A stretch of DNA of 64,000 bases from Candidatus Bathyarchaeota archaeon (lineage in GTDB: Archaea; Thermoproteota; Bathyarchaeia; Bathyarchaeales; Bathycorpusculaceae), in assembly GCA_963827165.1 (NCBI GenBank), contig CAWGZR010000005.1, forward strand, positions 576,001 to 640,000, written 5' to 3'. Position numbers and translations under genes: made by a program. A model generated the notes under the pieces. That model worked only from the letters and a program-made list of their open reading frames with translations. It did not search any database and was not told the origin of the DNA. Numbering within the stretch: the first letter of the stretch is position 1; every line of letters starts with the position of its first letter. Below are positions 17,579-35,511 of this stretch, piece by piece.

Positions 17579-18831
17579 CACAGTTGCCCACAGACGGCGA
17601 CAAGAAAAAAGAAGATGAAGGACTAAAACTCAGCAATGAGTTAATGGAAGCCCTCGCGAAATTCAAACAAATCGAACTTGAAGATTTCCAAATCGACGTC
17701 AAAGAGCTTGAACTAATCTTCGAACCCGGCATGGCTGGGCAAATAATGCCCAAGCTAAAGCTCCCCGTTTCATTGGCAGCCGCAGGCGGAAAACCCACAT
17801 CAATGCTTCAAGTGCCATTCATACCACCAGTAGAAACGTATCCCAACACGATAACAGAAGTCAAACTCGGCGCAACCCGAAAAGAAGGCGGAACACGCGG
17901 AACAACCTTCACCATAGGCGGCGAAAAATCACCTGCATTCTACAACTTCGAGCGACCAACCACCCACAAACCCGTCATCACACTTGACGTTTTTGACATG
18001 GAAGTGCCACTGAGCAAAGCCGTCAAGATGCACGTTAAAGATGTCGTTGGAGATCCAGCGGCATGGGCAAAACTTGCAGTAGAGCAGTTCAAAGCCGACA
18101 TGGTAACAATCCACTTAATCAGCATCGACCCACTGCTAAAGGACGCTACTCCAAAAGACGCAGTGAAAACAGTTGAAAAAGTTTTGCAAGCAGTTGATGT
18201 TCCACTAGTCATCGGCGGATGCGGAGATCCAGTTAAAGACGCAAACGTTTTCGAAGCAATATGCGAGGCTTTCCCAGGCGAACGATTCCTAATCAGCTCG
18301 ATAACACGAGACATGGACGTTGAACGCTGCGCCAAATTCGTCAAAAAAGCAGGACATGCAGCACTCTCATTCACACCAATGGATCTCAACTTAGCGCGGG
18401 AACTTAACAGACGGCTATACGACTACTTAGGCAGAGAAGACATAGTCATGGACTTAACCACCGCAGCGTTAGGCTACGGCTTAGATTACGCGTTCACCAA
18501 CATGGAACGCGCAAGGCTCGGCGGATTAATGGGCGATATGGAACTTGCTCATCCGATGTCATCGGGAACAACCAATGCGTGGGCTGCACGAGAAGCTTGG
18601 CTGAAAATGTCCACGGAATGGGAACCACGCGAACTGCGAGGCCCGCTCTGGGAGGTAACCACTGCCCTGACACTTCTGCTTGCAGGCGTTGACCTGTTCA
18701 TGATGATGCATCCAGCAGCCGTCAAAACACTCAAAGACGTTACTAACTACCTGACCAGCGGCAAAAAAGCAGACGCATCCAAGTATGCTGACTGGGTAAC
18801 CATGAAAGCCCAAGGGGTTGGAAAACAATGA
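17575..18831 (+). CDS. cdhD: ACDS complex delta subunit (CoFeSP small subunit)
   Basis: LGATRKEGGTRG, ALGYGLDY, NAWAAREAW, MMMHP. Confidence 0.95.
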   Translation: MTQLPTDGDKKKEDEGLKLSNELMEALAKFKQIELEDFQIDVKELELIFEPGMAGQIMPKLKLPVSLAAAGGKPTSMLQVPFIPPVETYPNTITEVKLGATRKEGGTRGTTFTIGGEKSPAFYNFERPTTHKPVITLDVFDMEVPLSKAVKMHVKDVVGDPAAWAKLAVEQFKADMVTIHLISIDPLLKDATPKDAVKTVEKVLQAVDVPLVIGGCGDPVKDANVFEAICEAFPGERFLISSITRDMDVERCAKFVKKAGHAALSFTPMDLNLARELNRRLYDYLGREDIVMDLTTAALGYGLDYAFTNMERARLGGLMGDMELAHPMSSGTTNAWAAREAWLKMSTEWEPRELRGPLWEVTTALTLLLAGVDLFMMMHPAAVKTLKDVTNYLTSGKKADASKYADWVTMKAQGVGKQ

Positions 18832-20249
18832 CCGAGAAAAAAAGAGCCAGCTTAAAAGAATTAAGCCCCATTGACATTTACAAGGTTCTACCAAAAATCA
18901 ACTGCAAAGAATGCGGCCAAGACAACTGCATGGCGTTCGCCACAAAAATCGTTAACCGCGAAGTAGAACTCGACAGCTGCAAACCACTTCTAAAACCAGA
19001 AAACGCAAAAGCCTACGAGAAACTCAAGGACATTCTTAAGCCAGCCGTTAAAGAAGTCGTAGTTGGAGTCGGCGACAAAGCAAAGAAACTCGGCGGCAAA
19101 CTCGTAATGTACCGCCATGAATTCACCTACAAGAACCCAACAGCTATCGCAATCGACGTAACCGACGAAATGCCAATTCAAGAAGTCGTCTCACGAGTTC
19201 AGTACACCGAAAACTTCACCTTCGAATACATTGGAAACACACTAAAGCTGGACATGATCGCGGTAAGATGCACATCAGGCGATGCAGACAAATTCAAAGC
19301 AGTAGTCAAAAAAGTCGCGGAAACAACCAAACTACCACTAATCATATGCACATTGAACCCAGCCATAGCAGAGGCAGGCCTAATGGCAATACCCAAGGCA
19401 AAACCGCTACTCTACGCGGCAACCCCAAGCAACTGGAAAGACATGGCGGAACTCGCATTAATGTACGAATGCCCACTAGTCGCATCAGCACCAAACGACA
19501 TGACCGCACTAGTTTCACTCACAAAGACATTGATGACTTACGGAGTAACCGATTTGGTTTTAGACCCGGGCACCTTCCCCAACGAAGGCTTACCTGATAC
19601 AATAAACAACTTCACGATGCTACGCAGAGCGGCAACTAAAGGCGGCGAAGAACTTGCAGGATTCCCGTTAATGGGCGTACCAATGGTCGCATGGGAGGAC
19701 GCAGCAACAGCTGAAGACCTCTTGAAATGGCGCGAAGCATACTTAGCGTCAATGCTCATAGTACGTTACGCAGATGTGCTCGTCATGCACACAGTAAGCG
19801 GCTGGTCACTTCTACCCTCAACAGTGCTTAGGCAAAACATTTACACTGACCCACGCAAACCCGTCGCTGTAGCTCCAGGACTCAAAGTATTCGGAACACC
19901 AGACGAAAACTCGCCAGTAATGTTCACCACAAACTTCGCCCTAACATACTATACCGTCGCATCAGACATCGAAAGCAGCAAACTCAATGCATACCTAATT
20001 GTGGTTGAAACAGAAGGCAGCGCAATCGACAGCGGAGTCGCAGGAAGAAAACTAACTGCGGAACGCGTAGCCGACGCAATAAAAGCCTCAGGCATAGAGA
20101 GCAAAGTCAAACACAGAAAACTCTTAATCCCCGGCAAAGCATCACGAATCAGCGGCGAAATCGAAGAACTCAGCGGCTGGAAAGTCCTCGTTGGACCGCG
20201 CGACAGTAGCGAGATACCCAAGTATCTCATTGAGAAATGGCAACCATAA
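18828..20249 (+). CDS. cdhE: ACDS complex gamma subunit (CoFeSP large subunit)
   Basis: LPKINCKECG..CMAFA, RQNIYTDPRKP, TTNFALTYY, VGPRDS. Confidence 0.97.
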   Translation: MTEKKRASLKELSPIDIYKVLPKINCKECGQDNCMAFATKIVNREVELDSCKPLLKPENAKAYEKLKDILKPAVKEVVVGVGDKAKKLGGKLVMYRHEFTYKNPTAIAIDVTDEMPIQEVVSRVQYTENFTFEYIGNTLKLDMIAVRCTSGDADKFKAVVKKVAETTKLPLIICTLNPAIAEAGLMAIPKAKPLLYAATPSNWKDMAELALMYECPLVASAPNDMTALVSLTKTLMTYGVTDLVLDPGTFPNEGLPDTINNFTMLRRAATKGGEELAGFPLMGVPMVAWEDAATAEDLLKWREAYLASMLIVRYADVLVMHTVSGWSLLPSTVLRQNIYTDPRKPVAVAPGLKVFGTPDENSPVMFTTNFALTYYTVASDIESSKLNAYLIVVETEGSAIDSGVAGRKLTAERVADAIKASGIESKVKHRKLLIPGKASRISGEIEELSGWKVLVGPRDSSEIPKYLIEKWQP

Positions 20250-20417
20250 GCCATACCCCTTCTTCTTTTTAGTTTTTTCTTATTATTCTTAGCAAAAAAT
20301 TTGTAACCTGCAATTGTACGTAATACCTTCCCGTGTTTCTTTCGGTTTTTTTTCTGAATTAGCGGTTGTTCATTAAGTTTTTATTTTAGATTGGGAATTG
20401 GGATTGTGGTGATTTTT

Positions 20418-20816
20418 TTGGATCATACGATTGTGCATTTTGAGATTCCAGCCAACGACATCGAGAAGATCAAGCAGTTTTATGTTGAGTTGTTCGGTTG
20501 GAAAATGGAAAAATACCCTGGACCGACAACATACTATCTTGTGGGAACTGTTCCCGTGGATGAAAAGACAATGATGCCTATCCGACCTGGTGTCAATGGT
20601 GGATTATACAATAGGAAGGACTCTTCAATGCCTGAAATGGCCAAGCCAACGAACTACATTTTAGTAGAGTCAGTCGAGGAATACAGTAAGAAGGTTGAGG
20701 CGTTGGGCGGCAAAATTGTTGTGCCTAAGATGGAGATTCCCGGATTAGGCTGGTGGGCGCTGGCGCTGGACCCTGAAGGCAATCACTTCGGATTGTTGGA
20801 GTACATGCAGAAGTAA
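20418..20816 (+). CDS. VOC/glyoxalase family protein
   Basis: IVHFEIPA...FYVELFGW...DPEGNHFGL; TTG start after GGTGA SD. Confidence 0.9.
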   Translation: MDHTIVHFEIPANDIEKIKQFYVELFGWKMEKYPGPTTYYLVGTVPVDEKTMMPIRPGVNGGLYNRKDSSMPEMAKPTNYILVESVEEYSKKVEALGGKIVVPKMEIPGLGWWALALDPEGNHFGLLEYMQK

Positions 20817-20866
20817 TTGAAATTCGCGACAAAGAATTTCTGCACATGAAAAATCGCGAAGGGGCC

Positions 20867-20897
20867 GCCAACTGAGGGTTCTGTTGGCTTTCTTTGG
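20867..20897 (+). terminator. Hairpin plus T-tract after the VOC gene
   Basis: GCCAAC-N10-GTTGGC followed by TTTCTTT. Confidence 0.4.
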
Positions 20898-20930
20898 CTT
20901 CTATTTGCGATTGGCAGGCGTGGAAATGTC

Positions 20931-21010
20931 TTTTTTAGATGTTTTTAGATGAAAATAGATTTTTCTAGATGTTTCTAGAGCTTTTTAGATGTTTTTAGAT
21001 TTTTCTAGAG
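20931..21010. repeat. Tandem array of eight 10-bp units (consensus KTTTYTAGAK)
   Basis: ttttttagat gtttttagat gaaaatagat ttttctagat gtttctagag ctttttagat gtttttagat ttttctagag. Confidence 0.85.
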
Positions 21011-21220
21011 ACCAGTTACAACCAATCCAAGCCCTAAACCAAGAAAGCAATCCAAAACACAAACAAAAAAATTTTGGCCAAAAAATACTCTCTCCTTTCT
21101 CTTTTACTTTAAACCCTGAAAATGTCAAAATAGCCCTGCTTTTGAGCTAAATATGTACTAAAAGCTGATAAACCCCTTTTTTCACTTACATCCCCATTCA
21201 AGGGCGAGAAGGGACTAAAG

Positions 21221-22708
21221 ATAGGCTGCGGTATCTTTGGAGCAAAAAACTTTGAAAATCAAACGGTCTTTCCATATGTTTATTGGGGCCTCCGCGCCCA
21301 GAACCATCGGGGTCATCAATCTCACGGTTTCCTAACTTATGACGGTAAGTTTCATGTTTACAAAAGCTTAGATTTGGTTCCAAGGCTTAAAAACGAGGCT
21401 ATACATGAATGGTTCGACCGTTTGCCCGGCTCAGTAGGCATCGGCAACGTACGTTACACGACCTCGGGCAAATGTGACGATGCATCAATCATCGAAGGAA
21501 CCCAGCCTGTTGCTGCAAGTGCAGGCGGAATAAAACTTGCACTCTCATTTAACGGCAACATCGTAAACACTTTACCGCTTAAGAAGGAAATGAGCGACAA
21601 CTTTTCCGACTTCCACTTTAACTGCGACTCAGACGTCGTCTGCCACAAACTGCTCCTTGGACTCAAAGAAGGCAAAGACCTGCCGAGTGCGGTTCGATCA
21701 GTGATGGAAAGCCTTGACGGCGCATTCTCCGTAACTGGGCTCACGGGCGATGGCGACTTTTTCGCTTTTAAAGATCCGCATGGAATAAAACCCCTCTGCG
21801 CAGGGCACGACCCCGCGGGCGCAACCCTCGCTTTCTGCTCGGAAACAGTGGGGTTAGATATGAACAGCTTCGTGAGGGACTTTGAGCTAAACCCAGGAGA
21901 ACTCGTTACCGCTTCAAAAGACGGGTTCAAACGAATACAAATTATCGAAAAACCCCGCCAAGCTTTCTGCTCTTTCGAATACGCATATTTTGCTAGGCCA
22001 GATTCAAGGTTTGACGGCAAATACGTTTATGAAATCCGCGAGGACTTCGGAAGAAACATTGTTCACGAGTTTCCAGAGATAGTTCGAGACGGCGACATAA
22101 TCATGTCAGTTCCTGAAACAGGAGACGATCCTGCCATGGGAGTCCACGAAGCTTCAGGTTTAAGATGGGAACGTGCATCTAGGCGGCACCGCTACGTCAC
22201 CGAACGAGCCTTCATTCTTCTAAACACGGAAAGATTCTCAACTATCGATAAGAAAATCAACATTTTAGGCTCCAAAGTAGACGGCAAACGTGTTATAATA
22301 ACAGAAGACAGCATAGTCCGCGGAGACACGACAAAAATCATCATAGATAAACTTCGAAAGGCAGGAGCCACAAAAGTCTACGTCTTCGTCACGTTCCCAA
22401 GAATCATCGGTCCATGCTTCTATGGCATCGACATGTCAACATACGGGCAACTCATCGGCTCCAAACACAGCACAGAGGAAATCGCCAAAATCATCGGCGC
22501 AGACGCGGTATGCTACCAATCAATTGAAGCATTAATCAAAGCTACAGGTCAAACAGAAAATGAACTTTGCATGGCCTGTATCACAGGCAAATACCCGACG
22601 CCCTGCGCTCAAAAAATGGCTGATGCAATGAAAAAGAAGTTCCTTGAAGGTTACGAGGAAAAATCAAGAATCTACGAAACCGAAGACTCCCAGCCAAAAA
22701 AGCAGTAA
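21221..22708 (+). CDS. purF: Amidophosphoribosyltransferase; apparent ATA start
   Basis: Frame open upstream of the called TTG: (I/M)GCGIFG...QNHRG...VRYTTSG...NGNI...EDSIVRGDT...PCFYGIDM...LCMACITGKYP. Confidence 0.93.
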   Translation: MGCGIFGAKNFENQTVFPYVYWGLRAQNHRGHQSHGFLTYDGKFHVYKSLDLVPRLKNEAIHEWFDRLPGSVGIGNVRYTTSGKCDDASIIEGTQPVAASAGGIKLALSFNGNIVNTLPLKKEMSDNFSDFHFNCDSDVVCHKLLLGLKEGKDLPSAVRSVMESLDGAFSVTGLTGDGDFFAFKDPHGIKPLCAGHDPAGATLAFCSETVGLDMNSFVRDFELNPGELVTASKDGFKRIQIIEKPRQAFCSFEYAYFARPDSRFDGKYVYEIREDFGRNIVHEFPEIVRDGDIIMSVPETGDDPAMGVHEASGLRWERASRRHRYVTERAFILLNTERFSTIDKKINILGSKVDGKRVIITEDSIVRGDTTKIIIDKLRKAGATKVYVFVTFPRIIGPCFYGIDMSTYGQLIGSKHSTEEIAKIIGADAVCYQSIEALIKATGQTENELCMACITGKYPTPCAQKMADAMKKKFLEGYEEKSRIYETEDSQPKKQ

Positions 22709-22748
22709 ACATCAAGCGTACCGTCTTGAATTAACACGGTGTAATCTT

Positions 22749-24164
22749 ATGGAGAAAATAGGTGTACTAGTAGTTTCGTACGGCGCAAGAGAAGTTGCAA
22801 TGGTTGATGCGCTACTGCAAAGCACACGCTACCAAGTGGAACTCTTCGTTGCTGATAAGCAACGTAATCCGTACAATATTGAAAAAGCCGTCAAACACGA
22901 GGTTATCCCAAACCTCGATGTTGCGGAGATATGCAAGTTCGCCCAAGCAAACAAAGACAAAATCGACTTCGCCCTGGTTGGGTCAGAAAAACCCATAATT
23001 GACGGCGTCCGCGACCAAATCGAAAAATCTACAGGAATACCAGTCATCTGCCCAAAGCAGCAATACGCCATAGAAGTCAGCAAAGTAGAGCAGCGCCAAC
23101 TTTTCGATGAGATAGCGCCAGAAGCTAACCCGAGGTTCAAAGTCTTTAGCCCGGCTGACTACAAAGGAGGGGCAGACGTCAAAAGCGCAGTTTACCGTTG
23201 GCTAGACGAACTCGACAACCAGGCAGTTGTTAAGCCTGACAAACCTGCTCTGGGGAAAGGTGTCGGAGTCTGGGGTGACCACTTCGCTAACCGCGAAGAG
23301 CTTTTTGAGCACTTCATGTCTAACTTCAAGTACGGCAACGTCATAATCGAGGAGAAAATCGACGGGGAAGAATCAAGTTTCATGGCTTTCTGCGACGGCA
23401 AACACTTCATTGCGCTTCCAGACACAAGGGACTACAAACGTGCCTTCGACGGCGATCGAGGTCCAAACACGGGCGGGATGGGCTCATACAAAGACTCAGA
23501 CGGCAGATTGCCTTTCTTGACCGCCGTGGAACGGGACGATGAGTTGGCGTTAGCGAACAAGATTTTCAAAGGGTGGAAAGCCAAAATCAAAGATGATTCC
23601 GCGCTGAGAGGTGTGCCTTTATACCTTGCTTTTATGCACACAGGGAAGGGGATCAAGGTTCTTGAGAACAACAGTCGCCCTGGCGACCCCGAAATAATTA
23701 ATTTGCTTGCTCTAATCAAGGATGATTTCATCGACGTCTGCTTCAGGATTATTGAGGGAAACTTGACAGGCGTCAAAATGGATAATGCAGCGTCCGTTTT
23801 AACCTACAAGGTTCCACTTGATTACGGCGGCTACGCAGAAGTCTTCCCCGCCCAAGCTCGCCTCGCGGAGGCTAACACTCCGGTTGACTTATCAAAAGCC
23901 CTTTCGCTAACCAAGAAATACGGTAACCGCATCCGCGTTTACCCAGGCTCAATGGAAATCAGAAACGGCAAAAACTACGCATTAAAATCTCGTGCCGTCG
24001 GCGTCTTAGGCATTGCGGATAGCATTGAGGAGGCGCGCAGCATAAGTCTTGAAGGAACCGAAGCAATTTCTGGCGGGGGATTGTGGAGCAGAACCGATGT
24101 CGCCTCAAAGAAAAACATCGCAAAAGCCGTTCAGCACATGGAGAGTTTGAGGCGCAAGGCGTGA
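22749..24164 (+). CDS. purD: Phosphoribosylamine-glycine ligase (GAR synthetase)
   Basis: GARE, VVKPD..ALGKGV, GEESS, DYKRAFDGDRGPNTGGMGSY, NSRPGDPE. Confidence 0.95.
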   Translation: MEKIGVLVVSYGAREVAMVDALLQSTRYQVELFVADKQRNPYNIEKAVKHEVIPNLDVAEICKFAQANKDKIDFALVGSEKPIIDGVRDQIEKSTGIPVICPKQQYAIEVSKVEQRQLFDEIAPEANPRFKVFSPADYKGGADVKSAVYRWLDELDNQAVVKPDKPALGKGVGVWGDHFANREELFEHFMSNFKYGNVIIEEKIDGEESSFMAFCDGKHFIALPDTRDYKRAFDGDRGPNTGGMGSYKDSDGRLPFLTAVERDDELALANKIFKGWKAKIKDDSALRGVPLYLAFMHTGKGIKVLENNSRPGDPEIINLLALIKDDFIDVCFRIIEGNLTGVKMDNAASVLTYKVPLDYGGYAEVFPAQARLAEANTPVDLSKALSLTKKYGNRIRVYPGSMEIRNGKNYALKSRAVGVLGIADSIEEARSISLEGTEAISGGGLWSRTDVASKKNIAKAVQHMESLRRKA

Positions 24165-25243
24165 AGCGCATCTTCATTTCCGACTGCGAAGGACCGATCA
24201 GCAAAAACGACAACGCCTTCGAATTATCGTCAAACTTTATTCCGAACGGCGACAAATTGTTCACTAACATAAGCAAGTATGATGACGTTCTAGCTGACAT
24301 TTTTCGCAAACCCGGCTATTCGGCTGGAAGCACGCTTAAGCTTATTTTGCCCTTTTTCAAAGCATACGGGCTAACTGATGCGCAGCTGGAAGACTACTCT
24401 GCTAAAAACATAATCTTGATCGCCAACAGTCAAACCACCCTTAGTCACGTACAAACTATCGCCGACGCTTTCATAGTAAGTACCAGCTACGAACACTATA
24501 TCAAAGCCCTATGCAAAGTCACAGATTTCCCATTCAGAAACACATACTGTACCCGTTTAAGTCTTGACAAATGCGGCATTACACCGCAGGAAAAAGAGCG
24601 GCTAAAAGAAGTAGCGCAAGAAATTGCCCAAATGAACACAATTGCCATTCCGCAAGCTTCGAAAGCCCTTGAAGATTTTTCGCAAGGTGACCAAGCAGTT
24701 ATTCGGCGTTTAGACCAGATCTTCTGGAGTGAAATTCCAAAGATGTTCGTCGGCAAATTCCTTGTGGACGTGGTTACTGTGGGCGGTGAACAAAAGGCTG
24801 AGGCAATCCGTAGCGCAGTGAAGCGTTTAGGACGGGAACTGGTCGATGTGATGTATGTAGGTGACAGCATCACTGACGTGGAAGCATTCAAGCTGGTGCG
24901 AGCAGGCGGCGGGTTAACAGTTTCCTTCAACGGCAACGACTACGCGGTTAAGAACGCTGAAGTCGCGGTTCTGTCGGAAAGCAGTCTTGTAACAGCCGTG
25001 ATTGCGGATTTGTTCTGCAGGTATGGGACGGAAAAAGCGCTTGAAGCCCTCCAAAGTTGGAGTAATGCTACGCTCAAAAACAGCGACGTTGACTCTTCTG
25101 TGCTTAAGCAACTTTCGCAGATGTATCCTGATGCCTTGCCTAAAGCTAAAATAATTACGGATCAAAACATGGAAATACTCATAAAAGAAAGCAGCGCGTT
25201 TAGAAAGAAAGTGCGAGGTGTAGCGGTTGGAAAGCTCGGGTAA
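24161..25243 (+). CDS. HAD-superfamily hydrolase, EhaR-like
   Basis: FISDCEGPISKNDNAFEL motif I variant, IVSTSY motif II, K motif III, YVGDSITD motif IV, SFNGN.YA; GTGA overlap with purD stop. Confidence 0.85.
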   Translation: MKRIFISDCEGPISKNDNAFELSSNFIPNGDKLFTNISKYDDVLADIFRKPGYSAGSTLKLILPFFKAYGLTDAQLEDYSAKNIILIANSQTTLSHVQTIADAFIVSTSYEHYIKALCKVTDFPFRNTYCTRLSLDKCGITPQEKERLKEVAQEIAQMNTIAIPQASKALEDFSQGDQAVIRRLDQIFWSEIPKMFVGKFLVDVVTVGGEQKAEAIRSAVKRLGRELVDVMYVGDSITDVEAFKLVRAGGGLTVSFNGNDYAVKNAEVAVLSESSLVTAVIADLFCRYGTEKALEALQSWSNATLKNSDVDSSVLKQLSQMYPDALPKAKIITDQNMEILIKESSAFRKKVRGVAVGKLG

Positions 25244-25244
25244 A

Positions 25245-26162
25245 ATGGCAGAAGCGGAAATAGAGGACACTTATGCTGAAGCTTTCACTGGGCTCTTTTG
25301 TCGCGTCATTGTCACGGCAGATGACAAAGAAACATTGCAAAAGGCTGCTGAAGATTCCACTGCAGCTCCTTCGGTTGTGATCGGAAGGACGGAAGGCGGA
25401 GTCGAAAGATATCTCACTCAAAAAGAAACCCCTGACCAGCGTTTAGGCGCTTTGTTGCAGATCTGGGGAGAAATTAACCCCAAAAAAACCTTCGAGGAAT
25501 CACTCAAAAAATTTGAAACTGAACTTTCCTACCGAATTCGCCAAGACATCTTGGTTAAGCCCTTCACAGCTGTTTTCGACGCCCTACTAAACGCCGAAGG
25601 AAAATTGGATATGATGGAGACTGTTGGGCATTGCGGCGACGGCTATGAATGGGTAGAAAAACGCTGCGGCCGAGAAGTCATAGTGGTTCCCCTAATGGTT
25701 CCCGACTTCGTGATTGAACGCTACTTAGGCTACAGTCGTGGGGTCATGGGAGGCAACTTTTGGGTAATGTGCAAAACCAAGCAAGCCCTAAAACTTTCAG
25801 GCGAAAAAGCCTTAGCTGCCATCCACAATGTGCCCGGCGTTGTCACACCCTTTGACGTATGCTCAGCAGGTTCTAAGCCCGAAACACATTTTCCCAAGAT
25901 TGGTCCCACAACGAACCACATATATTGCCCATCGCTTAAACAGAAGTTAGGAAAAGAATCCCGAGTACCCGACAATGCAGGCTACTTAGCTGAAGTGGTC
26001 TTTGACGGGGTTTCTTTGGAAGCCGTTAAACAGGCAACCAAAGTAGGCATCGAAGCAGTGCTGGGCGTTGAGGGCGTGGTGAAGATTTCTGCGGGCAACT
26101 ACGGGGGTAAACTGGGAGACCACAAAATAATGTTAAAGGAGTTATTTCATGACAAAATTTGA
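25245..26162 (+). CDS. Formylmethanofuran:H4MPT formyltransferase-like protein (divergent FtrII/EhaS type)
   Basis: EIEDTYAEAF, TPD.R.G, GDGYE, GVMGGNF, TN..YCP, ISAGNYGGKLG; deviates from canonical Ftr (RIRQDILVKPFT, VGHCGDG, CSAGSKPET). Confidence 0.88.
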   Translation: MAEAEIEDTYAEAFTGLFCRVIVTADDKETLQKAAEDSTAAPSVVIGRTEGGVERYLTQKETPDQRLGALLQIWGEINPKKTFEESLKKFETELSYRIRQDILVKPFTAVFDALLNAEGKLDMMETVGHCGDGYEWVEKRCGREVIVVPLMVPDFVIERYLGYSRGVMGGNFWVMCKTKQALKLSGEKALAAIHNVPGVVTPFDVCSAGSKPETHFPKIGPTTNHIYCPSLKQKLGKESRVPDNAGYLAEVVFDGVSLEAVKQATKVGIEAVLGVEGVVKISAGNYGGKLGDHKIMLKELFHDKI

Positions 26163-27066
26163 TGTTGTAGGTTTCGGAGCTCTTAATGTTGACATGCTCT
26201 TTAAAGTGGAGAGGCTAGCACGGGCTGAAGAGGAAAGCTTCGTTGAAGATTACACTGAGGCCTGCGGCGGCTCAGCGGCAAATACCACTGTTGGTTTGGC
26301 AAGGCTCGGCTGCAAAACTGGCTTCATCGGAAAAGTAGCTGATGATCGAGAAGGCAAATTACAAGTCGACTGTTTCAAAACTGAAGGTGTAGACACAGCA
26401 GGCATCGTTCAGGCGAAGAGGGGGAAAAGCGGGTCAGTTATGGGATTCGTGGACAAGAAAGGGGCAAGAGTCCTCTACATCAACCCAGGAGTCAACGATT
26501 TAATCGAGCCTCGAGAAATAAACTACAGCTACGCTTTCGGGACAGAATTTCTGCATTTCTCATCATTTGTTGGCGAAAAATCTTTTCGAGCCCAAAAAAA
26601 ACTCTTAGGCGCTTTGCCCAGCAATGTCAAAATCAGCTTTGACCCCGGGTCAGTATACGCACAGAAAGGTTTTGCAGCCATTGAACCGATAATTCGAAGC
26701 TCCTACGTTTTTATGCCTAACGAGGGCGAACTTGAACTCATAACTGGAGAAACTGACATCCGCAGAGCCGCCGACTCAATACTTGACGCAGGGGTCAAAA
26801 TCGTAGCAGTCAAGCTGGGCGATAAAGGCTGTTACGTTACTGATGGGCAGGAACGGCTGAGAATCGAGCCTTTCAAAGTTAAAGTGGTCGACACAACTGG
26901 GGCAGGTGACGCTTTCTGTGCTGGCTTCCTCTACGGCTTAATCAAGGAGAAGAGCCTCTTCGAATGCGGGCGCTTTGGTAATTTTGTCGCTTCAAGATGT
27001 GTCACAGCGATGGGAGCCCGCGGTGGATTGCCTTATGCCAAAGATTTACAGGCATTTTTTGGTTAG
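26149..27066 (+). CDS. PfkB/ribokinase family kinase (EhaT-like)
   Basis: GGSAANT, PNEGE, VKLGDKG, VDTTGAGDAF. Confidence 0.93.
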   Translation: MTKFDVVGFGALNVDMLFKVERLARAEEESFVEDYTEACGGSAANTTVGLARLGCKTGFIGKVADDREGKLQVDCFKTEGVDTAGIVQAKRGKSGSVMGFVDKKGARVLYINPGVNDLIEPREINYSYAFGTEFLHFSSFVGEKSFRAQKKLLGALPSNVKISFDPGSVYAQKGFAAIEPIIRSSYVFMPNEGELELITGETDIRRAADSILDAGVKIVAVKLGDKGCYVTDGQERLRIEPFKVKVVDTTGAGDAFCAGFLYGLIKEKSLFECGRFGNFVASRCVTAMGARGGLPYAKDLQAFFG

Positions 27067-27870
27067 GTTGCTGATCACGTTTTGGAAGATTAGTTTTCCG
27101 TCGCCATAATGTGGCATTTGATTTTGACTGGTCCAATCGGGTTGTTGCCACCAAAACATGGCTCTTTCCGGATGAGGCATAAGCCCGAAAACGTTTCCTT
27201 CCCTGTTGCATAACCCAGCAATATCATAGAAGGAGCCGTTGGGGTTAGCGGGGTACTTGCCGTCTGCAACCGTGCCGTCTTTGTCGCAGTACCGGAAAAC
27301 AACCATGTCGTCATCTATCAGTTTGGTAAGAAGCGCTTGCTCTTTTTCTTTCGGGAAAAGCAATCTTCCTTCCCCATGAGCGATAGGCATCCTCAACATT
27401 TGACCAGCTGCGATTTTGTTCGTGAAGAGGCATTTTCCGCGGTTTTCATGTTTTAGGTAGATCCACTGGCACTTGAAGCCTGCAGGTTCGTTGGTCGTCA
27501 AAGTAGCTTCGGGGTATGAACTTACGTCTTTGAATCCTGGGAGCAAACCGTACTCAACCATTATTTGGAATCCGTTGCATATTCCCAGGATTGGTCTGCC
27601 ATCGTCGATGAAAGTTTCCATTTCTTTGCCTAACTTGGCGCTAAGATGTCTTGCGAAAATTACGCCTGAACGTACATAATCGCCAAAGGAGAAGCCGCCT
27701 GGAAAAACCAGCACCTGATAATCGAGCAAGCTATGCAGTTTTGCTAGTTCGTTGACATGCAGGACGTCGGTTTGGACGCCTAACTCGTGGAAAGCCCGCT
27801 GAGTTTCCGAGTCACAATTTGTTCCGCCAACACGCATGACGCAGACTTTGATTTCTTCGAGCTTCATCAA
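27046..27870 (-). CDS. purQ: FGAM synthase glutaminase subunit
   Basis: GTNCD, PGGFSFGD, GICNGFQ, AHGEG, MPHPER. Confidence 0.96.
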   Translation of the reverse strand: MMKLEEIKVCVMRVGGTNCDSETQRAFHELGVQTDVLHVNELAKLHSLLDYQVLVFPGGFSFGDYVRSGVIFARHLSAKLGKEMETFIDDGRPILGICNGFQIMVEYGLLPGFKDVSSYPEATLTTNEPAGFKCQWIYLKHENRGKCLFTNKIAAGQMLRMPIAHGEGRLLFPKEKEQALLTKLIDDDMVVFRYCDKDGTVADGKYPANPNGSFYDIAGLCNREGNVFGLMPHPERAMFWWQQPDWTSQNQMPHYGDGKLIFQNVISNLTKKCL

Positions 27871-30248
27871 GTTTTACCGCCAAATGTTTTCTTCCAGCTC
27901 CGCCGCAAATCTGCAAGTGAAGCGTCGACGATGGTTTTCATGTTTAACCCGTTAACGACCAATCGCTCGTCTTTGGTTACTTTTCCGATCTGAGCGTAAG
28001 GTTTGTTTCTCATTACAGACTCAAAGTCTTCTTTATCTTGCTCTGACACTTCTAGCAGGAAACGGCTGTTCGACTCAGAAAACAACATAAAATCGTTCCG
28101 CTCAATGCCCGTCGCCGGCACTTTGCTTAAATCCAGTTGCAAGCCGTAGCCGCCAGCAAACGCCATCTCCGCCGCCGCTACCGCCAACCCGCCTTCCGAG
28201 AGGTCGTGGCATGACTTGATTAAGCCCGAATCTATTGCTTTGGTAACTGCCCTGAAAGTGCGTTTAGCTTTGGCACCTTTAACTTTTGGAACACTTGCGC
28301 CCAGATAGCCATTGAGTTTGTAGTATTCTGAGCCACCCAATTCGTGTAGTGTTTCTCCTGCGATGTAGAGCAGGTTGCCAGGTGCTTTTAGATCCATTGA
28401 AGTCACCAATTGAATGTTTGGCAGGATGCCTACTGCCGTAATCAACAGCGTTGGGGTAACGGGACCCATCGGGGACTCATTGTAGAGGCTATCTTTTCCA
28501 GAGATAAACGGAGTCTTGAACGCCACTGCAAAGTCATAGCATGCTTCGCAAGCCCGAACCAGTGAGCCTAAACGCTCCGGCTTTTCAGGGTTTCCCCAAG
28601 TGAAATTATCAAGCAACGCAATTCTTCTTCCCCCCACCGCAACGTTGTTTCTCACTGCCTCATCAATGGCAGAAGCCGCCATCCAGTAAGGGTCAATTTT
28701 GCCATAATTCGGCTTCATACCGCACGAAATCGCTAAACCCTTCCATGAATCATTAAGCGGTTTGAGAACGGCTGCATCGTTCGGTCCAGCGTAGACTCCC
28801 TGGAGGGGTTTAAGCGTCGTGTTGCCTTTGACCTCATGGTCATATGTTCGTATGACGCTTTCTTTGCTAGCTATGTTTGGGGCTGCAAGCAATTGAAGCA
28901 GGGTCTCAGTCAGGTTTTCAGGGGCGGAAAACTGCGGTTCCGCGAAGCTTGATTTTTCAATGGTCGCTATTTTCACGCTTTTGCAGGGGTTAAACAGGAA
29001 AGCCATTTCCATGTCCGCGACTTTTTCGCTGTTGAAATTGAGGAGTAGACGTCGTTCAGTTGTGAGTTTTCCGATTGCCGTTGCTTCGACATCTTCTCTC
29101 GCAAATATCGCCATGACTCGGTCTAAGTTTTCAGGCGGAACCGTTATGAGCATTCTTTCTTGTGATTCGGAAATGTAAATTTCCCAGGGCGCTAAACCGC
29201 GGTGCTTGAGGGGCACTTTGTCTAGGTCAATTGTTATTCCACAGTTGAACCTTTCAGCTGTTTCACCTATAGCTGACGATAATCCGCCTCCTCCAAGGTC
29301 GGTTGTCGCCGAAGCAAGTTGCAAATCACGGATATCTATTATCGCCCTTTTCACTTTCTCTTCTTCGATCGGATCAGCGATTTGCACCGCAGGTCGCGAA
29401 ATCTCCTCGGATTTCTCCGTTAATTCGGCTGAGGCGAAGGTTACGCCGTGGATGCCATCGCGTCCTGTTTTTCCACCAGCCAAAACCACGATATGCCCTG
29501 GTTTAGCGTTTTTTGTGAATTTAGCTAGCGGAAGGAGTCCTATGCATCCGCAATAGACAGTGACGTTGCCTGTGTAGCTTTCGTCAAAGTATATTGCTCC
29601 GTTGACCGTTGGGATTCCCATGTTGTTTCCATAGGCGCTGATGCCCGCTGTCACGCCCATGTAAACGTATTTTGGGTGTTTCACGCCTGCTGGAAGCTTT
29701 TTGTAGTCGTAATCGAGCGGTCCGAAGCCTAAAACGTCGGTGCATGCGATCGGGTCAGCCCAAACGCCAAGTATGTCCCTGATTACGCCTCCGACCCCTG
29801 TGGCCGCCCCGCCAAAGGGTTCTACTGCTGATGGGTGATTATGGGTTTCAACTTTTGCCGCTATACCGTATCCTTGGTCGAAGCGGACGATTCCCGCATT
29901 GTCTTCGAAAACGCTAAAGCACCATGGCGCCTTGATTTGTTTAGTTGCTTTTGCAATGTAGGTTTTGAAAAGGCTGTCGATTTCTTTGCCGTCAAGAAGG
30001 ATTTTTCCTTTGAAAGTTTTGTGGTAGCAGTGCTCTGACCATGTTTGACTGATGGTTTGCAGCTCAACGTCGGTTGGGTTTCTTCCTTCCGTTTTAAAGT
30101 AGGTTTGGATGCTCTTCATTTCTTCGACACTTAAGCCTAACGCTAATTCACTACTGGCTTCAGCGAGTTGCTTATCGTTGGCTTCAGCTAAAGCTGCTTC
30201 GTAGAGGGCGTAATCTGTCTTGCGGGCACGGTAAAGTGAAGAGCTCAT
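27867..30248 (-). CDS. purL: FGAM synthase large subunit
   Basis: WSEHCYHKTF, KVETHNHPSA, TGRDGIHG, SESQERM, HDLSEGG. Confidence 0.97.
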   Translation of the reverse strand: MSSSLYRARKTDYALYEAALAEANDKQLAEASSELALGLSVEEMKSIQTYFKTEGRNPTDVELQTISQTWSEHCYHKTFKGKILLDGKEIDSLFKTYIAKATKQIKAPWCFSVFEDNAGIVRFDQGYGIAAKVETHNHPSAVEPFGGAATGVGGVIRDILGVWADPIACTDVLGFGPLDYDYKKLPAGVKHPKYVYMGVTAGISAYGNNMGIPTVNGAIYFDESYTGNVTVYCGCIGLLPLAKFTKNAKPGHIVVLAGGKTGRDGIHGVTFASAELTEKSEEISRPAVQIADPIEEEKVKRAIIDIRDLQLASATTDLGGGGLSSAIGETAERFNCGITIDLDKVPLKHRGLAPWEIYISESQERMLITVPPENLDRVMAIFAREDVEATAIGKLTTERRLLLNFNSEKVADMEMAFLFNPCKSVKIATIEKSSFAEPQFSAPENLTETLLQLLAAPNIASKESVIRTYDHEVKGNTTLKPLQGVYAGPNDAAVLKPLNDSWKGLAISCGMKPNYGKIDPYWMAASAIDEAVRNNVAVGGRRIALLDNFTWGNPEKPERLGSLVRACEACYDFAVAFKTPFISGKDSLYNESPMGPVTPTLLITAVGILPNIQLVTSMDLKAPGNLLYIAGETLHELGGSEYYKLNGYLGASVPKVKGAKAKRTFRAVTKAIDSGLIKSCHDLSEGGLAVAAAEMAFAGGYGLQLDLSKVPATGIERNDFMLFSESNSRFLLEVSEQDKEDFESVMRNKPYAQIGKVTKDERLVVNGLNMKTIVDASLADLRRSWKKTFGGKT

Positions 30249-30496
30249 TGCTGATCCTCAAAAGTTACGGTATAGTTGTCTTTGGTTGGGTTCGCAAGGA
30301 GGCGTTTGCTCATCTCTTCCGCTTTTACCTTTGCCTCATTAATTGTCTTCGCCTCAAGCGAGACCGTGTAGACTTTGCTTACGTCCACCGCTTGCACTTT
30401 ATATCCGAGTTCCGTTAGCAAACGGGCTGTTGTTTCCCCTTCAGGGTTGCTGTGACCTGGTTTCAGGATGACTTCTATCTTCGCTCGGTATATCAT
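30245..30496 (-). CDS. purS: FGAM synthase PurS subunit
   Basis: LKPG..NPEG, RLLANP; synteny with purL. Confidence 0.93.
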   Translation of the reverse strand: MIYRAKIEVILKPGHSNPEGETTARLLTELGYKVQAVDVSKVYTVSLEAKTINEAKVKAEEMSKRLLANPTKDNYTVTFEDQQ

Positions 30497-30554
30497 AAAT
30501 CCTTTAAATTAAGCCTAAAGATTTAAACGCTTTCAACAGAAAAAAAGCAAAATT

Positions 30555-31634
30555 TTACGTCAAAACCAGCCTTTTGTTTCCGTACTTTACTTCCACCGTT
30601 TTCTTATCAGTTACTTTCCCTATGATTTCAGGCTTTTCCCCATCTATCTCCAACGCACTCATGGCTTTGTCCGCTTCAGATTTGTCCAAAATAATGCCAA
30701 AACCCCATCCCATGTTAAAAGTTTTGAACATTTCCTCATCAGAAATGCAGTAGCCTAATTCAGCCGCAGTCTTTTGGATCAGCTCGAATATGGGTTGTGG
30801 ACTGAAGTTGCTAAATTCAAAGCCTATCCCCGGCGAAAAATTAGCCAGGTTGTTAAATTTCATGTAACCATCACCCGTGATATGGACAGCCGCTTTCACC
30901 TTGACTTTGCTAGCCACCTTAAGAAGCGGCTTAACATAAATTTTCGTCGGCTCGAGCGCTTCAAGCACAACTTCCCTATCTAATCCTTCAGGGACATCGT
31001 TTGGCTGGTATTTTCCTCCCCACTGCTTAAACAAGATTTTTCTAACCATCGTTAAGCCGTTGCTATGCAATCCACTGCTTGCTAAGCCTATTATCGGGTC
31101 TTCCGGCTTGATGCCTTCGCCAGTTATGATGTTTTGCCGCTCAACCGTTCCAACTGACGCGACTACCATGTCAAAGCCTGTATTGTCGACTAAGCCTTTT
31201 ATTATTTCTGCCACATCACCTGTTTCCCCGCTTGTAACTGGGCACTCTGCTTCAGCGGCGCCTTGACCGATTCCTTTGAGCCACTCTCTTACAAGGCGAG
31301 GTTCACTGGCTTGCGCATGGATGTTGTCGGCAATTGCAAGGGGTCGGGCTCCTGAACGTATTACATCGTTAACCGCCATCGCCACCGCGTCGACGCCTAT
31401 AGTGTCATATTTGTTTGCCAATTGTGCCAAAAGAACTTTGGTTCCTACCCCTTCAATGACTAGGTCCAAAAAAGTGTTTTCGCCAACCGGAAAAATGTTG
31501 CCATATGGCAAACGCATTACATTGCCAAAGCGGCTGTACTTGTAAGTTTCCTGTAGATCTTTCAGGGCTTTTTTTGATTCGACGCGCTGCTGCCGATTTA
31601 CACCTGCATCCGTGTAAGTGAAGTTTTTGGGCAA
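30555..31634 (-). CDS. purM: AIR synthetase
   Basis: YTDAGVN, EGVGTK, MAVND, SGET, SSGLHSNG, HITGDG, TFNMGWG. Confidence 0.95.
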   Translation of the reverse strand: MPKNFTYTDAGVNRQQRVESKKALKDLQETYKYSRFGNVMRLPYGNIFPVGENTFLDLVIEGVGTKVLLAQLANKYDTIGVDAVAMAVNDVIRSGARPLAIADNIHAQASEPRLVREWLKGIGQGAAEAECPVTSGETGDVAEIIKGLVDNTGFDMVVASVGTVERQNIITGEGIKPEDPIIGLASSGLHSNGLTMVRKILFKQWGGKYQPNDVPEGLDREVVLEALEPTKIYVKPLLKVASKVKVKAAVHITGDGYMKFNNLANFSPGIGFEFSNFSPQPIFELIQKTAAELGYCISDEEMFKTFNMGWGFGIILDKSEADKAMSALEIDGEKPEIIGKVTDKKTVEVKYGNKRLVLT

Positions 31635-31859
31635 ACTGGTGTTCTCCTCGTAATCTTTCTGTTACGTTAGAAATAACGATTATGCTTGCTTTGAAGCCGG
31701 ATTGCAATTACATGTTTTTCTGGCCGATCAAAGAAAGAGGTTCTTGAGGTTTAACGGGCTTCAGTAGGTACGCGTCTGGGTAGGGGATCATATTGCTCAA
31801 ATGAAAACTAATATATTGCCGCGAACCCAACAAAAACAAGCCTGAGCCAAAATGTGCTT

Positions 31860-31936
31860 GCGGTCGTAGTCTAGCTTGGTTAGGACATCAGGTTCCCAAC
31901 CTGACAACCCGGGTTCAAATCCCGGTGACCGCACCA
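31860..31936 (+). tRNA. tRNA-Gly(CCC), CCA encoded, no intron
   Basis: Acceptor GCGGTCG/TGACCGC, anticodon arm TCAGG-TTCCCAA-CCTGA, T arm CCGGG-TTCAAAT-CCCGG, ends ACCA. Confidence 0.96.
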
Positions 31937-32048
31937 GAAATAATGGCTCTAAGTCTTTATCGCTCAAAACTTGGTTTTGAGCAAAAGACAAAAGAGGGAC
32001 GCTTCTTTGCATAATTGTAGGTGTTAAGTTATTCTTTCAGGTTATCTT

Positions 32049-32291
32049 ATGCTTCCAGTTCCCTCTTACACGCAGCAATACGTTAGGTGCCCAAACTGCG
32101 GTTCACAAATAACCGCGAATTCTAACTACTGCAACTTCTGCGGAATCGCGCTCCATCAACCCGTCCTGCTCAAAATATGCCCCGGATGCAGCACGAAAAT
32201 TCCTGCCAAATCGAAATTCTGTCCCGAATGCGGCAAGAAACAGCCCGCGGAAGCAACCCTGCAGAAGCCTACAGGGGATACCCAGCGCTAG
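32049..32291 (+). CDS. Double zinc-ribbon protein
   Basis: CPNCG, CNFCG, CPGC, CPECG. Confidence 0.8.
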   Translation: MLPVPSYTQQYVRCPNCGSQITANSNYCNFCGIALHQPVLLKICPGCSTKIPAKSKFCPECGKKQPAEATLQKPTGDTQR

Positions 32292-32757
32292 CTTTGGCGG
32301 TCAAGCCTTCAAGCCAAATTTGATGCTGCTTCTTCATCTGCTGTGGTCGAAGAGCCTTTCCAAATCGGGCGAGCCATCCACGCTGCGTTTCCTCTGTTAT
32401 CACAGTGCAGCCTGAAGGCGTTTTTTGGATAAGCCACGCATGGTAAGCATCAAACCCGTTGCGATGTGCATCCCAAGCCAGCCGCTCATCGGGTACGAAT
32501 TCAAGCACGGAGGAAACTATAGTTATGCCAAAAGTTTTCCAGTGGAATTGTGTTCCTAAGGCGAGGTCAGGTGGTTGGCCTTTTAGAAACTGGATATCGG
32601 ATGAGTTAGGATACCATGTCGGCCAAAGTTGTGCCCGTATTAGCCATGCCCACACAATTTCGGGACGCGCACTCATTGCAAGTTCGTTGTGGACGTGGAT
32701 TGGACTTTTTTCCGGTTGAAAACCGTCCGGCCAAAAGATTTGGTTTGGATTCGCCAT
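32269..32757 (-). CDS. SRPBCC/polyketide cyclase family protein
   Basis: ARPEIVWAWL...WPTWYP...ERLAW...YHAW...TEETQRG. Confidence 0.85.
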   Translation of the reverse strand: MANPNQIFWPDGFQPEKSPIHVHNELAMSARPEIVWAWLIRAQLWPTWYPNSSDIQFLKGQPPDLALGTQFHWKTFGITIVSSVLEFVPDERLAWDAHRNGFDAYHAWLIQKTPSGCTVITEETQRGWLARFGKALRPQQMKKQHQIWLEGLTAKASAGYPL

Positions 32758-32873
32758 GTAAAAAGCCTCATTTTTACTTAGTTTGTTCTAAGCTAAAAAC
32801 CTGACTATTCCACAAAAACAGGTTATGGGTTGCCTGCTAAAATCGGGTATTTGCTAAAGAAAGTTGCTCATTT

Positions 32874-35339: not shown

Positions 35340-35511
35340 GTTAAACGCCTTATTGGTTGGTGGCGAAGCTTGACAGGTTCTTCCTTCTTGTTTTCCATTG
35401 CTTTGGTTGGAAAAACAAGAATCAAGATAGTCAACTCCCAGTTCGTAGGTTCTGAATTGCTAGTTTCAAGGTGTAGAAATAGTTAAATCCTTCTAGGAGT
35501 CTTACTGAAAT

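Follow-up and report, generated by a model that had tools for sequence, protein, structure and literature searches.

A candidate for the missing GAR transformylase in a purine gene cluster of Bathyarchaeia

Which enzyme formylates glycinamide ribonucleotide (GAR), the product of PurD, to formylglycinamide ribonucleotide (FGAR) is the question raised by a purine biosynthesis cluster of a Bathyarchaeota archaeon. The cluster occupies 21221-31634 of a 64,000-nucleotide stretch of DNA (the window), which corresponds to positions 576001-640000 of contig C5 of genome G000, an assembly of 3.13 Mb in 14 contigs that is 94.5% complete. Five genes of the + strand, purF-purD-HAD-FtrII-PfkB, converge there on purQ, purL, purS and purM of the - strand, and close homologs of the encoded proteins bear NCBI names of Candidatus Bathyarchaeia. 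Family profiles agree with the original prediction that steps 1, 2, 4 and 5 of the pathway are encoded in the cluster and that a GAR transformylase is absent from it. Behind purD lie genes for a protein of the haloacid dehalogenase superfamily (HAD, 24161..25243), for FtrII, a paralog of formylmethanofuran:tetrahydromethanopterin formyltransferase (Ftr, 25245..26162), and for a PfkB-family kinase (26149..27066). The comparative evidence described below makes FtrII the probable GAR formyltransferase, that is, the missing enzyme of step 3. The original prediction had already cast the Ftr paralog in this role, and the proposal gains from synteny in two phyla, from the equivalence of its slot with that of known step-3 enzymes, from complementarity with these enzymes in Bathyarchaeia and from its displacement by PurN-like genes, all of it evidence of a comparative kind.

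The gap in the cluster is also a gap in the genome. The PurN-type domain PF00551 has no match in the whole genome, and the best genome match to PurT (TIGR01142) scores 50 bits, against a cut-off of 502, in a 1091-aa open reading frame (ORF) that resembles carbamoyl-phosphate synthase (CarB-like). Neither PurH nor formate-tetrahydrofolate ligase was found in the genome. Step 9 is provided for by two tandem PurP (DUF1246) genes (G000:C11:110601-112066), an arrangement that Brown 2011 (PMC3261824) also describes for other archaea. With PurN and PurT absent and PurP present for step 9, only step 3, from GAR to FGAR, is left without a known enzyme. The genome search thus bore out the lack of purN and purT, and it located a canonical ftr elsewhere in the genome (C5:893536), whose product scores 186.6 bits against 152.2 for FtrII in the same search. 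Mch and FwdA (798.8 bits) are present as well, and together with the canonical Ftr they make formyl-tetrahydromethanopterin (formyl-H4MPT) and formyl-methanofuran plausible formyl donors.

The slot after purD and its occupants

Species-representative genomes were scanned with an alignment of the HAD protein, and synteny was examined in the best 80 of at least 575 relatives (HAD identity 57-80%), whose labels read Bathyarchaeia or Bathyarchaeota in all but four records. Wherever the contig reaches, each of the 80 loci carries an uninterrupted slice of purF-purD-HAD-FtrII-PfkB. All five genes are present in 70 loci, HAD-FtrII-PfkB in 76 and the convergent purQ in 64, and the start/stop coupling of HAD, FtrII and PfkB is conserved among related loci. 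This gene arrangement is far beyond chance. A locus taken at one point for a degenerate copy (G359) proved to contain an assembly gap, where the translation reads as consecutive X. A survey of pur-gene neighbourhoods had been suggested in the original prediction; it shows the linkage conserved throughout the 80 Bathyarchaeia loci and present again in a second phylum.

The phyletic pattern within Bathyarchaeia points the same way. In a sample of 301 genomes from the phylum, HAD was found in 40, which are 40 of the 44 belonging to the class of the window, and in none of the 257 outside it. A class sample of 201 Bathyarchaeia genomes was then searched for HAD, PF00551, PurT-like proteins (E 1e-40 or better), PurD and FtrII. 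HAD was matched in 81, PF00551 in 77, PurD in 161 and PurT-like proteins in 13, the last being full-length matches that fall below the TIGR cut-off (225-303 bits). Among the 161 genomes with PurD, HAD was the only marker in 71, PF00551 in 65 and the PurT-like protein in 12; six had HAD with PF00551, one had HAD with a "PurT", and six had none of the markers, three of these being less than 80% complete. The 40 genomes negative for PurD comprised 31 with none of the markers, six with PF00551 and three with HAD fragments. The few cases of overlap have mostly one explanation: in five of the six genomes with HAD and PF00551 the second gene is a divergent PurN-like gene (G037, G069, G320, G315, G401). 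In the sixth (G407), S, K and E replace the catalytic N, H and D, and the "PurT" found with HAD in G301 is a 384-aa PurK-like ORF; neither was accepted as a true co-occurrence. A canonical PurN or PurT was found in none of the 78 genomes of this sample that have both HAD and PurD.

FtrII is confined to HAD-positive genomes in the class sample, and the canonical Ftr (FtrI) is widespread. In family f7, FtrI occurs in 14 of 14 genomes, of which 8 have PurT, and all 12 of the PurT-only genomes lack HAD. The set of markers also varies inside families: f7 has members with HAD/FtrII, with PurT and with PurN, and f58 has members with FtrII and with PurN-like genes.

What stands directly after purD differs between loci of this one class. 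In G335 (L101) the gene after purD is a canonical PurN, in G246 (L105) it is PurT, in the window it is HAD-FtrII-PfkB, and in G320, G315 and G401 (L088, L089, L092) it is a divergent PurN-like gene followed by HAD and PfkB. The PurN-like gene also follows purD in G069 and G037, but stands apart from HAD-PfkB there. The PurN-like proteins retain the motifs NxHPA and LDEGP, and S(S/T)GRD stands where the canonical loop is SGxGSN, the loop that grips the GAR phosphate in E. coli PurN. Because a PurN-like fold appears in the place of FtrII and HAD and PfkB stay, the job of FtrII is likely to be formyl transfer in the purine pathway, and this displacement in situ is the strongest single argument for that role. 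The retention of HAD and PfkB where FtrII has been displaced argues that both of them belong to the same step.

Fusion proteins, three of them among the HAD-family representatives listed, tie the families together further. P0185 (599 aa) joins a PurN-like domain (PF00551, 46 bits; best PDB match E. coli GAR transformylase, E 3e-10) to HAD. P0194 (899 aa) and P0205 (961 aa) join an ATP-grasp domain to a HAD with the motif DWEGP; the ATP-grasp part is a divergent PurT/PurK-like domain whose best family match is weak (PurT, 33 bits in NCBIfam; PDB 2CZG, E 0.06), and the fusion would be a weak third link between HAD and a formyltransferase. A protein-atlas search with two fusion proteins gave scores of 0.75-0.81, too low to provide more than leads. 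HAD is C-terminal in every fusion, which leaves its conserved tail, ...VRGxxxGxLG, free. In G456 (L125, C1 6758-8548), FtrII and PfkB are read through as a single 620-aa ORF uninterrupted by a stop, which could be a natural fusion or an assembly error in this one genome. The longer homologs of FtrII included one 559-aa FtrI-like protein and no other FtrII fusion, so the FtrII-PfkB fusion is known from G456 alone.

The second phylum was sampled as 151 genomes around the one that holds L053, a record labelled Candidatus Thorarchaeota; G458 was set aside, its own contig being Bathyarchaeia-like and its FtrII scoring 581 bits. HAD was found in 24 of these genomes, PF00551 in 67 and PurT in 3, with no HAD in these last. 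FtrII-type genes, which score 280 bits or more where FtrI reaches 244 at most, are present in 27. All 24 HAD-positive genomes have FtrII, even when the two genes are unlinked, and of 28 genomes counted as FtrII-positive, 18 have neither PurN nor PurT. None of the profiled markers, a set that lay outside PurD, was found in 66 genomes.

Four kinds of gene context were seen in this phylum. Three genomes (L135-L137) have purF-purD-HAD-FtrII-PfkB-purL-purQ-purM, and seven have purQ-purL-purF-(purD)-HAD-PfkB-purE-purB-purM with FtrII elsewhere. In about ten large genomes, purD is followed by a 162-aa HEAT-like ORF and then HAD, with PfkB not adjacent and FtrII elsewhere. The fourth context, purQ-purL-purF-purD-FtrII, is found in G474, G485 and G496, with no detectable HAD, PurN or PurT and no adjacent PfkB.

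Two of these contexts contain further genes of their own. The ORF of roughly 162 aa is conserved, and its repeats are HEAT/PBS-lyase-like (...WQKRAEAARKLG...GRAVNLLCRAL...); it lies between purD and HAD in L138, L144-L147, L149 and L150, and in L154 a HEAT-like ORF is found just upstream of HAD, with no purD detected. A gene of the M20/M25/M40 peptidase family lies directly 3' of FtrII in G496 (L166:495-1781) and in G474 (L167:6378-7667), the two loci covered by the scan, with the third locus (L168, in G485) outside it. The product of this gene is possibly another accessory, e.g., a deacylase.

FtrII, HAD and PfkB as proteins

FtrII (305 aa) has both Ftr lobes at full length (PF01913, 150.3 bits with a cut-off of 27; PF02741, 177.6 bits with a cut-off of 25). 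It scores 332.8 bits on NF002554 of NCBIfam, above the cut-off of 297, and falls below the fhcD equivalog TIGR03119 (231.5 bits vs 292.6). A PDB search aligns it with Ftr of A. fulgidus at E 8e-51, and it is 38-43% identical to FtrI of the same genomes or class. Scores in Bathyarchaeia are bimodal, with FtrII at 258 bits or more (48-100% identity) and FtrI at 200 bits or less (at most 43% identity). The FtrII proteins of both phyla form one clade apart from FtrI (FastTree support 0.87, with a long stem), and the clade as a whole is marked by W74, R99 and C130, where FtrI has Y, G and F. An arginine that is invariant in FtrI is gone from FtrII, where position 207 is S or P, and the Cys pair of FtrI is missing too. 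Glu250 is invariant in 79 FtrII and in 17 second-phylum FtrII, and it was seen in 14 of 15 FtrI rows; the remaining row is a mis-extracted ORF. Its counterpart is the conserved catalytic glutamate of the family, Glu245 of M. kandleri Ftr.

Among known enzymes FtrII is closest to canonical Ftr (PDB 1FTR, 2FHJ, 1M5H, 1M5S; FhcD 6S6Y), with which it shares both Pfam lobes, E250 and the GNYGGKLG C-terminus. The transfer of a formyl group to a primary amine, which Ftr performs, is the same chemistry as that proposed for FtrII. The acceptor of Ftr, however, is methanofuran, and the proposed acceptor of FtrII is GAR or its riboside; unlike canonical Ftr, FtrII is always additional to an FtrI and is embedded in pur clusters. 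Its relation to the known step-3 enzymes, folate-dependent PurN and formate/ATP-dependent PurT, is of another kind. These share its slot after purD, have a distribution complementary to it in Bathyarchaeia and make FGAR, the product proposed for FtrII. In sequence and fold, however, they are unrelated to it, and the donor proposed for FtrII is a methanogenic or Wood-Ljungdahl one-carbon (C1) carrier. In Pfam and NCBIfam FtrII matches FTR families alone, with no homology to PurN or PurT, so as a GAR transformylase it would be an analogous, non-homologous enzyme. FtrII also comes with HAD and PfkB, whereas PurN and PurT never need such partners.

The HAD protein (360 aa) gives weak matches to generic HAD families of Pfam and matches PDB 1Y8A at E 8e-32. 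The latter is AF1437 of Archaeoglobus fulgidus, a structural-genomics HAD of the same family with a D-W-E-G-P variant of motif I; our literature search found no functional paper published on AF1437 or 1Y8A. Motif I of the window HAD reads S-D-C-E-G-P and motif IV G-D-S-I-T-D, and the protein ends in a conserved tail, ...FRKxVRGxxxGxLG. The nucleophile Asp is kept, but the Asp+2 residue is Glu, a DxE motif that also occurs in the active HAD enzyme enolase-phosphatase. Alignments A2 and A5 show no variation in D-x-E-G-P, nor in S107/S109 of motif II, K212 of motif III or G234-D235-x-I-T-D239 of motif IV. The 20 second-phylum HADs inspected all keep DxEGP and GDSITD; outside L135-L137, a basic RxxVRG-type tail is found in 17 of 17 and the LG ending in 15 of 17. 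An AlphaFold2 model (pLDDT 94.5) has a Rossmannoid HAD fold with a cap, and Foldseek aligns it best with 1Y8A (TM 0.82/0.93), followed by SerB-type phosphatases and ThrH at TM about 0.4-0.5. The protein is predicted from these features to be a phosphatase, or a phosphate-binding partner, of the formylation step. JGI names its homologs "energy-converting hydrogenase A subunit R" (EhaR). At E 0.001 or better the family comprises 636 representatives at 50% identity, of which 150 were listed.

The kinase (305 aa) matches PF00294 over its full length (181.7 bits, residues 5-295). Its best NCBIfam family is ribokinase (TIGR02152, 172.7 bits, below the cut-off of 299.65), and it falls below the other equivalogs of characterised kinases (ribokinase, ribose-1-phosphate kinase, nucleoside kinase) too (NF053626, 141 vs 330; NF041164, 74 vs 450). 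The nearest PDB chains are ribokinases (E 1e-28). The predicted acceptor of the enzyme is the 5'-OH of a ribofuranosyl group, and (formyl)glycinamide riboside is the candidate substrate. Salmonella STM4066 (PDB 1TYY), of the same PfkB fold and matched at E 4e-16, is an aminoimidazole riboside kinase, i.e., a PfkB kinase that phosphorylates the riboside of a purine intermediate, and it provides a precedent for rescue of a dephosphorylated purine intermediate. It differs in being a salvage enzyme that is not operonic with a formyltransferase, and the window kinase is nearer to true ribokinases.

The purine genes and their surroundings

The gene calls and junctions of the cluster, as read from the sequence, are exactly those of the original prediction. 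On the + strand, purF (21221..22708) encodes the amidophosphoribosyltransferase of step 1, with GATase_6/7 matches in Pfam and 315.9 bits on TIGR01134 over residues 3-459, a score for the frame read from 21221. GAR synthetase, step 2, is encoded by purD (22749..24164; PF01071, PF02844 and PF02843, the GARS_N/A/C domains; TIGR00877, 235 bits), for which the ATG at 22749, 41 bp past the purF stop, is the most probable start. The purD stop TGA (24162-24164) overlaps the GTG start of HAD (24161-24163) in the sequence GTGA. The TAA of HAD ends at 25243 and the ATG of FtrII begins at 25245, a gap of 1 bp, and the ATG of PfkB at 26149 falls 14 bp inside FtrII, whose stop ends at 26162. Step 4 is encoded on the - strand by purQ (27046..27870), for the glutaminase subunit of formylglycinamidine ribonucleotide (FGAM) synthase (PF13507, GATase_5, 226 bits), by purL (27867..30248), for the small PurL (PF02769, PF00586 and PF18072; AIRS, AIRS_C and FGAR-AT linker), and by purS (30245..30496; PF02700, 66.6 bits). 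Also on the - strand, purM (30555..31634; PF02769, PF00586) encodes the aminoimidazole ribonucleotide (AIR) synthetase of step 5.

The start of purF is unusual. Its frame begins ATA-GGC-TGC (I/M-G-C-G-I-F-G), which gives an apparent non-canonical ATA start before Gly-Cys, the Cys being the catalytic one. The frame is open from 21146, and between the upstream stop and the Cys the window has no in-frame ATG, GTG or TTG. Among 53 related loci scanned (L009-L059, L125, L126), the motif was found in 48, and the codon before GGC-TGC is ATA in 41, ATG in 5 and ACG in 2 of these. Upstream of purF, positions 20915-21010 hold successive near-repeats (TTTTTAGATG / TTTCTAGA), which could be a putative regulator-binding array.

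Directly upstream of the cluster is an operon for carbon monoxide dehydrogenase/acetyl-CoA synthase (16166-20249), with CdhC and two genes of the CdhD family (cdhD/E-like), one of which has an Fe-S domain; the carbonyl branch of the Wood-Ljungdahl pathway thus adjoins the proposed C1-consuming step. On the other side, an 821-aa protein (32874-35339, - strand) combines CHAD, a calcineurin-like phosphoesterase and Ppx/GppA-domain III/HD. This is an unusual architecture of a polyphosphate- or nucleotide-related kind. The original prediction that hydrogenase genes are absent here holds among the ORFs scanned, which span 16166-36132 of the window: neither hydrogenase genes nor hydrogenase families were seen among them.

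A proposed route for step 3 and its rivals

In the proposed route, FtrII would formylate the glycyl amine of the PurD product, converting GAR to FGAR and supplying C8 of the purine ring. The formyl group would come from Wood-Ljungdahl carriers, N5-formyl-H4MPT or formyl-methanofuran, and not from 10-formyl-tetrahydrofolate, as with PurN, or from formate and ATP, as with PurT. The simplest common target of a phosphatase and a kinase for the ribose 5'-OH, when both are linked to a formyltransferase, would be the 5'-phosphate of GAR or FGAR. HAD is suggested to bind or remove the 5'-phosphate of GAR, and PfkB to restore it on (formyl)glycinamide riboside. The pair could represent an obligatory detour, or could serve in substrate presentation and in the recycling of dephosphorylated intermediate. 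Gene content, synteny, phyletic patterns, fusions, fold and motifs are observed; the identity of substrates and donor, and the sequence in which phosphatase and kinase act, are inferred.

An obligatory detour would have HAD strip GAR of its phosphate, FtrII or a PurN-like enzyme formylate glycinamide riboside, and PfkB make FGAR with ATP, so that the one ATP spent would pull a near-isoenergetic formyl transfer forward. Much in the loci fits such a route: HAD and PfkB stay where the PurN-like gene replaces FtrII (L088, L089), the PurN-like proteins have catalytic motifs with the phosphate-gripping loop replaced, and both PurN-like-HAD and FtrII-PfkB fusions exist. HAD keeps the nucleophile Asp, the Lys and GDSITD on a fold like that of phosphoserine phosphatase (PSP), PfkB is closest to ribokinases, and the three genes keep their translational coupling in related loci. 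Yet the three genomes with purD-FtrII have no HAD match anywhere and no adjacent PfkB, so the riboside route cannot be obligatory everywhere, and in one group of the second phylum (L138, L144-L150) HAD lies by purD without an adjacent PfkB. The invariant Arg99 gained by FtrII could equally bind phosphate, and we know of no riboside intermediate of this kind. The detour in its obligatory form is a tentative, weaker part of the proposal and rather unlikely. Equally doubtful, as a complete package, is a third class of GAR formyltransferase with an Ftr fold that takes C8 directly from formyl-H4MPT or formyl-methanofuran and works at the nucleoside level together with HAD and PfkB. On that reading, step 3 would be a new three-enzyme, ATP-pulled reaction whose phosphatase/kinase pair can also be combined with a PurN-like enzyme that lacks the phosphate loop. 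The package would fill the hole in Methanobacteria, Methanopyrus, Archaeoglobi, ANME-1, most Bathyarchaeia and some Asgard-like archaea, and it would explain the presence of ehaRST on the operon of the anaplerotic Eha hydrogenase, with Eha replacing the formyl units drawn off by purine synthesis.

Other readings detach the trio from step 3. As a module for substrate supply, a PSP-like HAD would give serine, and then glycine and C1 units, and PfkB would be a ribokinase feeding ribose-5-phosphate and phosphoribosyl pyrophosphate (PRPP); FtrII would shuttle formyl groups between carriers, and another enzyme would formylate GAR. AF1437 aside, the structures that resemble the HAD model most are indeed SerB and ThrH, no SerB in the genome exceeds the cut-off (best 79.8 bits vs 144), ribokinase is the best family for PfkB, and HAD adjoins purD in genomes that also have PurN. 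The likeness to SerB, however, is at the level of fold alone (TM about 0.48, 13% identity), and the absence of HAD and FtrII precisely from the PurN-only and PurT-only Bathyarchaeia is left unexplained, as are the replacement of FtrII in situ by a PurN-like gene and the PurN-like-HAD fusion. Step 3 itself is left without a candidate, and this reading appears improbable. It is also conceivable that the trio serves step 9, from aminoimidazole carboxamide ribonucleotide (AICAR) to its formyl derivative (FAICAR), some other formylation, e.g., in a cofactor pathway, or the Eha hydrogenase as an accessory, as the KEGG-style name suggests. The riboside of AICAR is a known type of substrate for PfkB-family kinases, and many genomes of the second phylum have FtrII away from pur genes. 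According to Kaster 2011, the Methanothermobacter homologs are co-transcribed with eha. The genome already has two PurP for step 9, however. The module comes directly after purD, in a position that PurN and PurT, the enzymes of step 3, take in other genomes, HAD lies beside pur genes in two phyla, and no hydrogenase genes occur near the module (16166-36132) or in any related locus where unassigned ORFs were inspected. Such a role seems very improbable.

Step 3 thus remains the preferred assignment of FtrII, and several observations weigh against it. The anticorrelation with PurN and PurT that had been predicted is near-exclusive in Bathyarchaeia and breaks down in part in the second phylum, where 10 of the 24 genomes with HAD and FtrII also carry a canonical-looking PurN (PF00551 genes of full length and 143-181 bits, with fragments only in G492), and where FtrII is accordingly not simply a replacement. 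Redundancy of the kind seen in E. coli, which has both PurN and PurT, would explain this coexistence. In many genomes of that phylum (L155-L165), FtrII also lies apart from the pur genes. Within Bathyarchaeia, the PF00551 gene of family f56 (36 of 43 genomes) was taken for PurN because the one sequence inspected has canonical motifs, and in three inspected loci it lies outside a pur cluster. The genomes are metagenome-assembled and include close kin, so that the counts are not independent. The sole locus that a metagenome scan gave for a PurT-like-HAD fusion (L108:10001-12895) has restriction-modification, UvrD, SIR2 and AcnX genes as neighbours and no pur genes. A distant branch of the HAD family (P0253 and 100 relatives, about 25% identical to the window HAD) is widespread in Methanomassiliicoccales (Methanoplasma, Methanomethylophilaceae), which are not known to have Ftr or the H4MPT pathway, and HAD would thus not be tied to Ftr everywhere. 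The published record contributes three further points: Brown 2011 (PMC3261824) cites the view that formyl-H4MPT is not the purine formyl donor, and cites labelling in which C8 of M. stadtmanae comes from C2 of acetate, and Chadwick 2022 (PMC9012536) reports Ftr2, described below, in ANME-2a and -2b, which have PurN.

The same literature holds the two halves of the proposal separately. According to Kaster 2011, EhaS is Ftr-like and EhaT ribokinase-like, and both are co-transcribed with ehaA-R and have no assigned function. The statement of the original prediction that the trio ends the eha operon of Methanothermobacter agrees with this for EhaS and EhaT, and EhaR is the JGI name for the HAD. 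To judge by names and literature, and not by a tree, EhaR, EhaS and EhaT probably belong to the same three families as the window trio; their context is a hydrogenase operon, whereas that of the window and related loci is purine genes. The original prediction likewise stated that several H4MPT-using archaea lack recognisable purN and purT, and Brown 2011 (PMC3261824) names seven archaea without either gene: two Archaeoglobi, four Methanobacteria and M. kandleri. One of the methanogens discussed in that text, M. thermautotrophicus, is described as a purine prototroph. The HAD family of the window includes AF1437 of A. fulgidus. A clade termed Ftr2 is described in Chadwick 2022 (PMC9012536) from the anaerobic methanotrophic archaea (ANME) ANME-1, -2a and -2b, Archaeoglobales, M. 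kandleri and Methanothermobacter; ANME-1 is stated there to lack PurN and PurT, "an as yet unidentified enzyme" is invoked, and the two observations are not connected there. M. kandleri is given as the sole purT-less species among 11 thermophilic methanogens in Holden and Sistu 2023 (PMC10025317). Our literature searches, made within one library, found no published link between Ftr2 or EhaS and purine synthesis.

For several well-studied archaea the missing GAR formyltransferase is an acknowledged gap. It was raised in 2011 for Methanothermobacter, Methanobrevibacter, Methanopyrus and Archaeoglobus (Brown), and again for ANME-1 in 2022 and for M. kandleri in 2023. The locus and the comparative evidence name a candidate enzyme and two helpers, which makes the gap directly testable. 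If the assignment is correct, FtrII would represent a new function within a known enzyme family and would close a long-standing gap in the pathway. EhaR, EhaS and EhaT, and the orphan structure AF1437, would acquire a function. Formyl groups bound to H4MPT or methanofuran would feed biosynthesis directly, contrary to the view, cited above, that denies formyl-H4MPT this role. The systematic misannotation of these proteins as "Ftr", "hydrogenase subunit R" and "ribokinase" would be corrected, and predictions of carbon flux and auxotrophy would change for Bathyarchaeia, which are abundant archaea of sediments, and in the metabolic models of methanogens.

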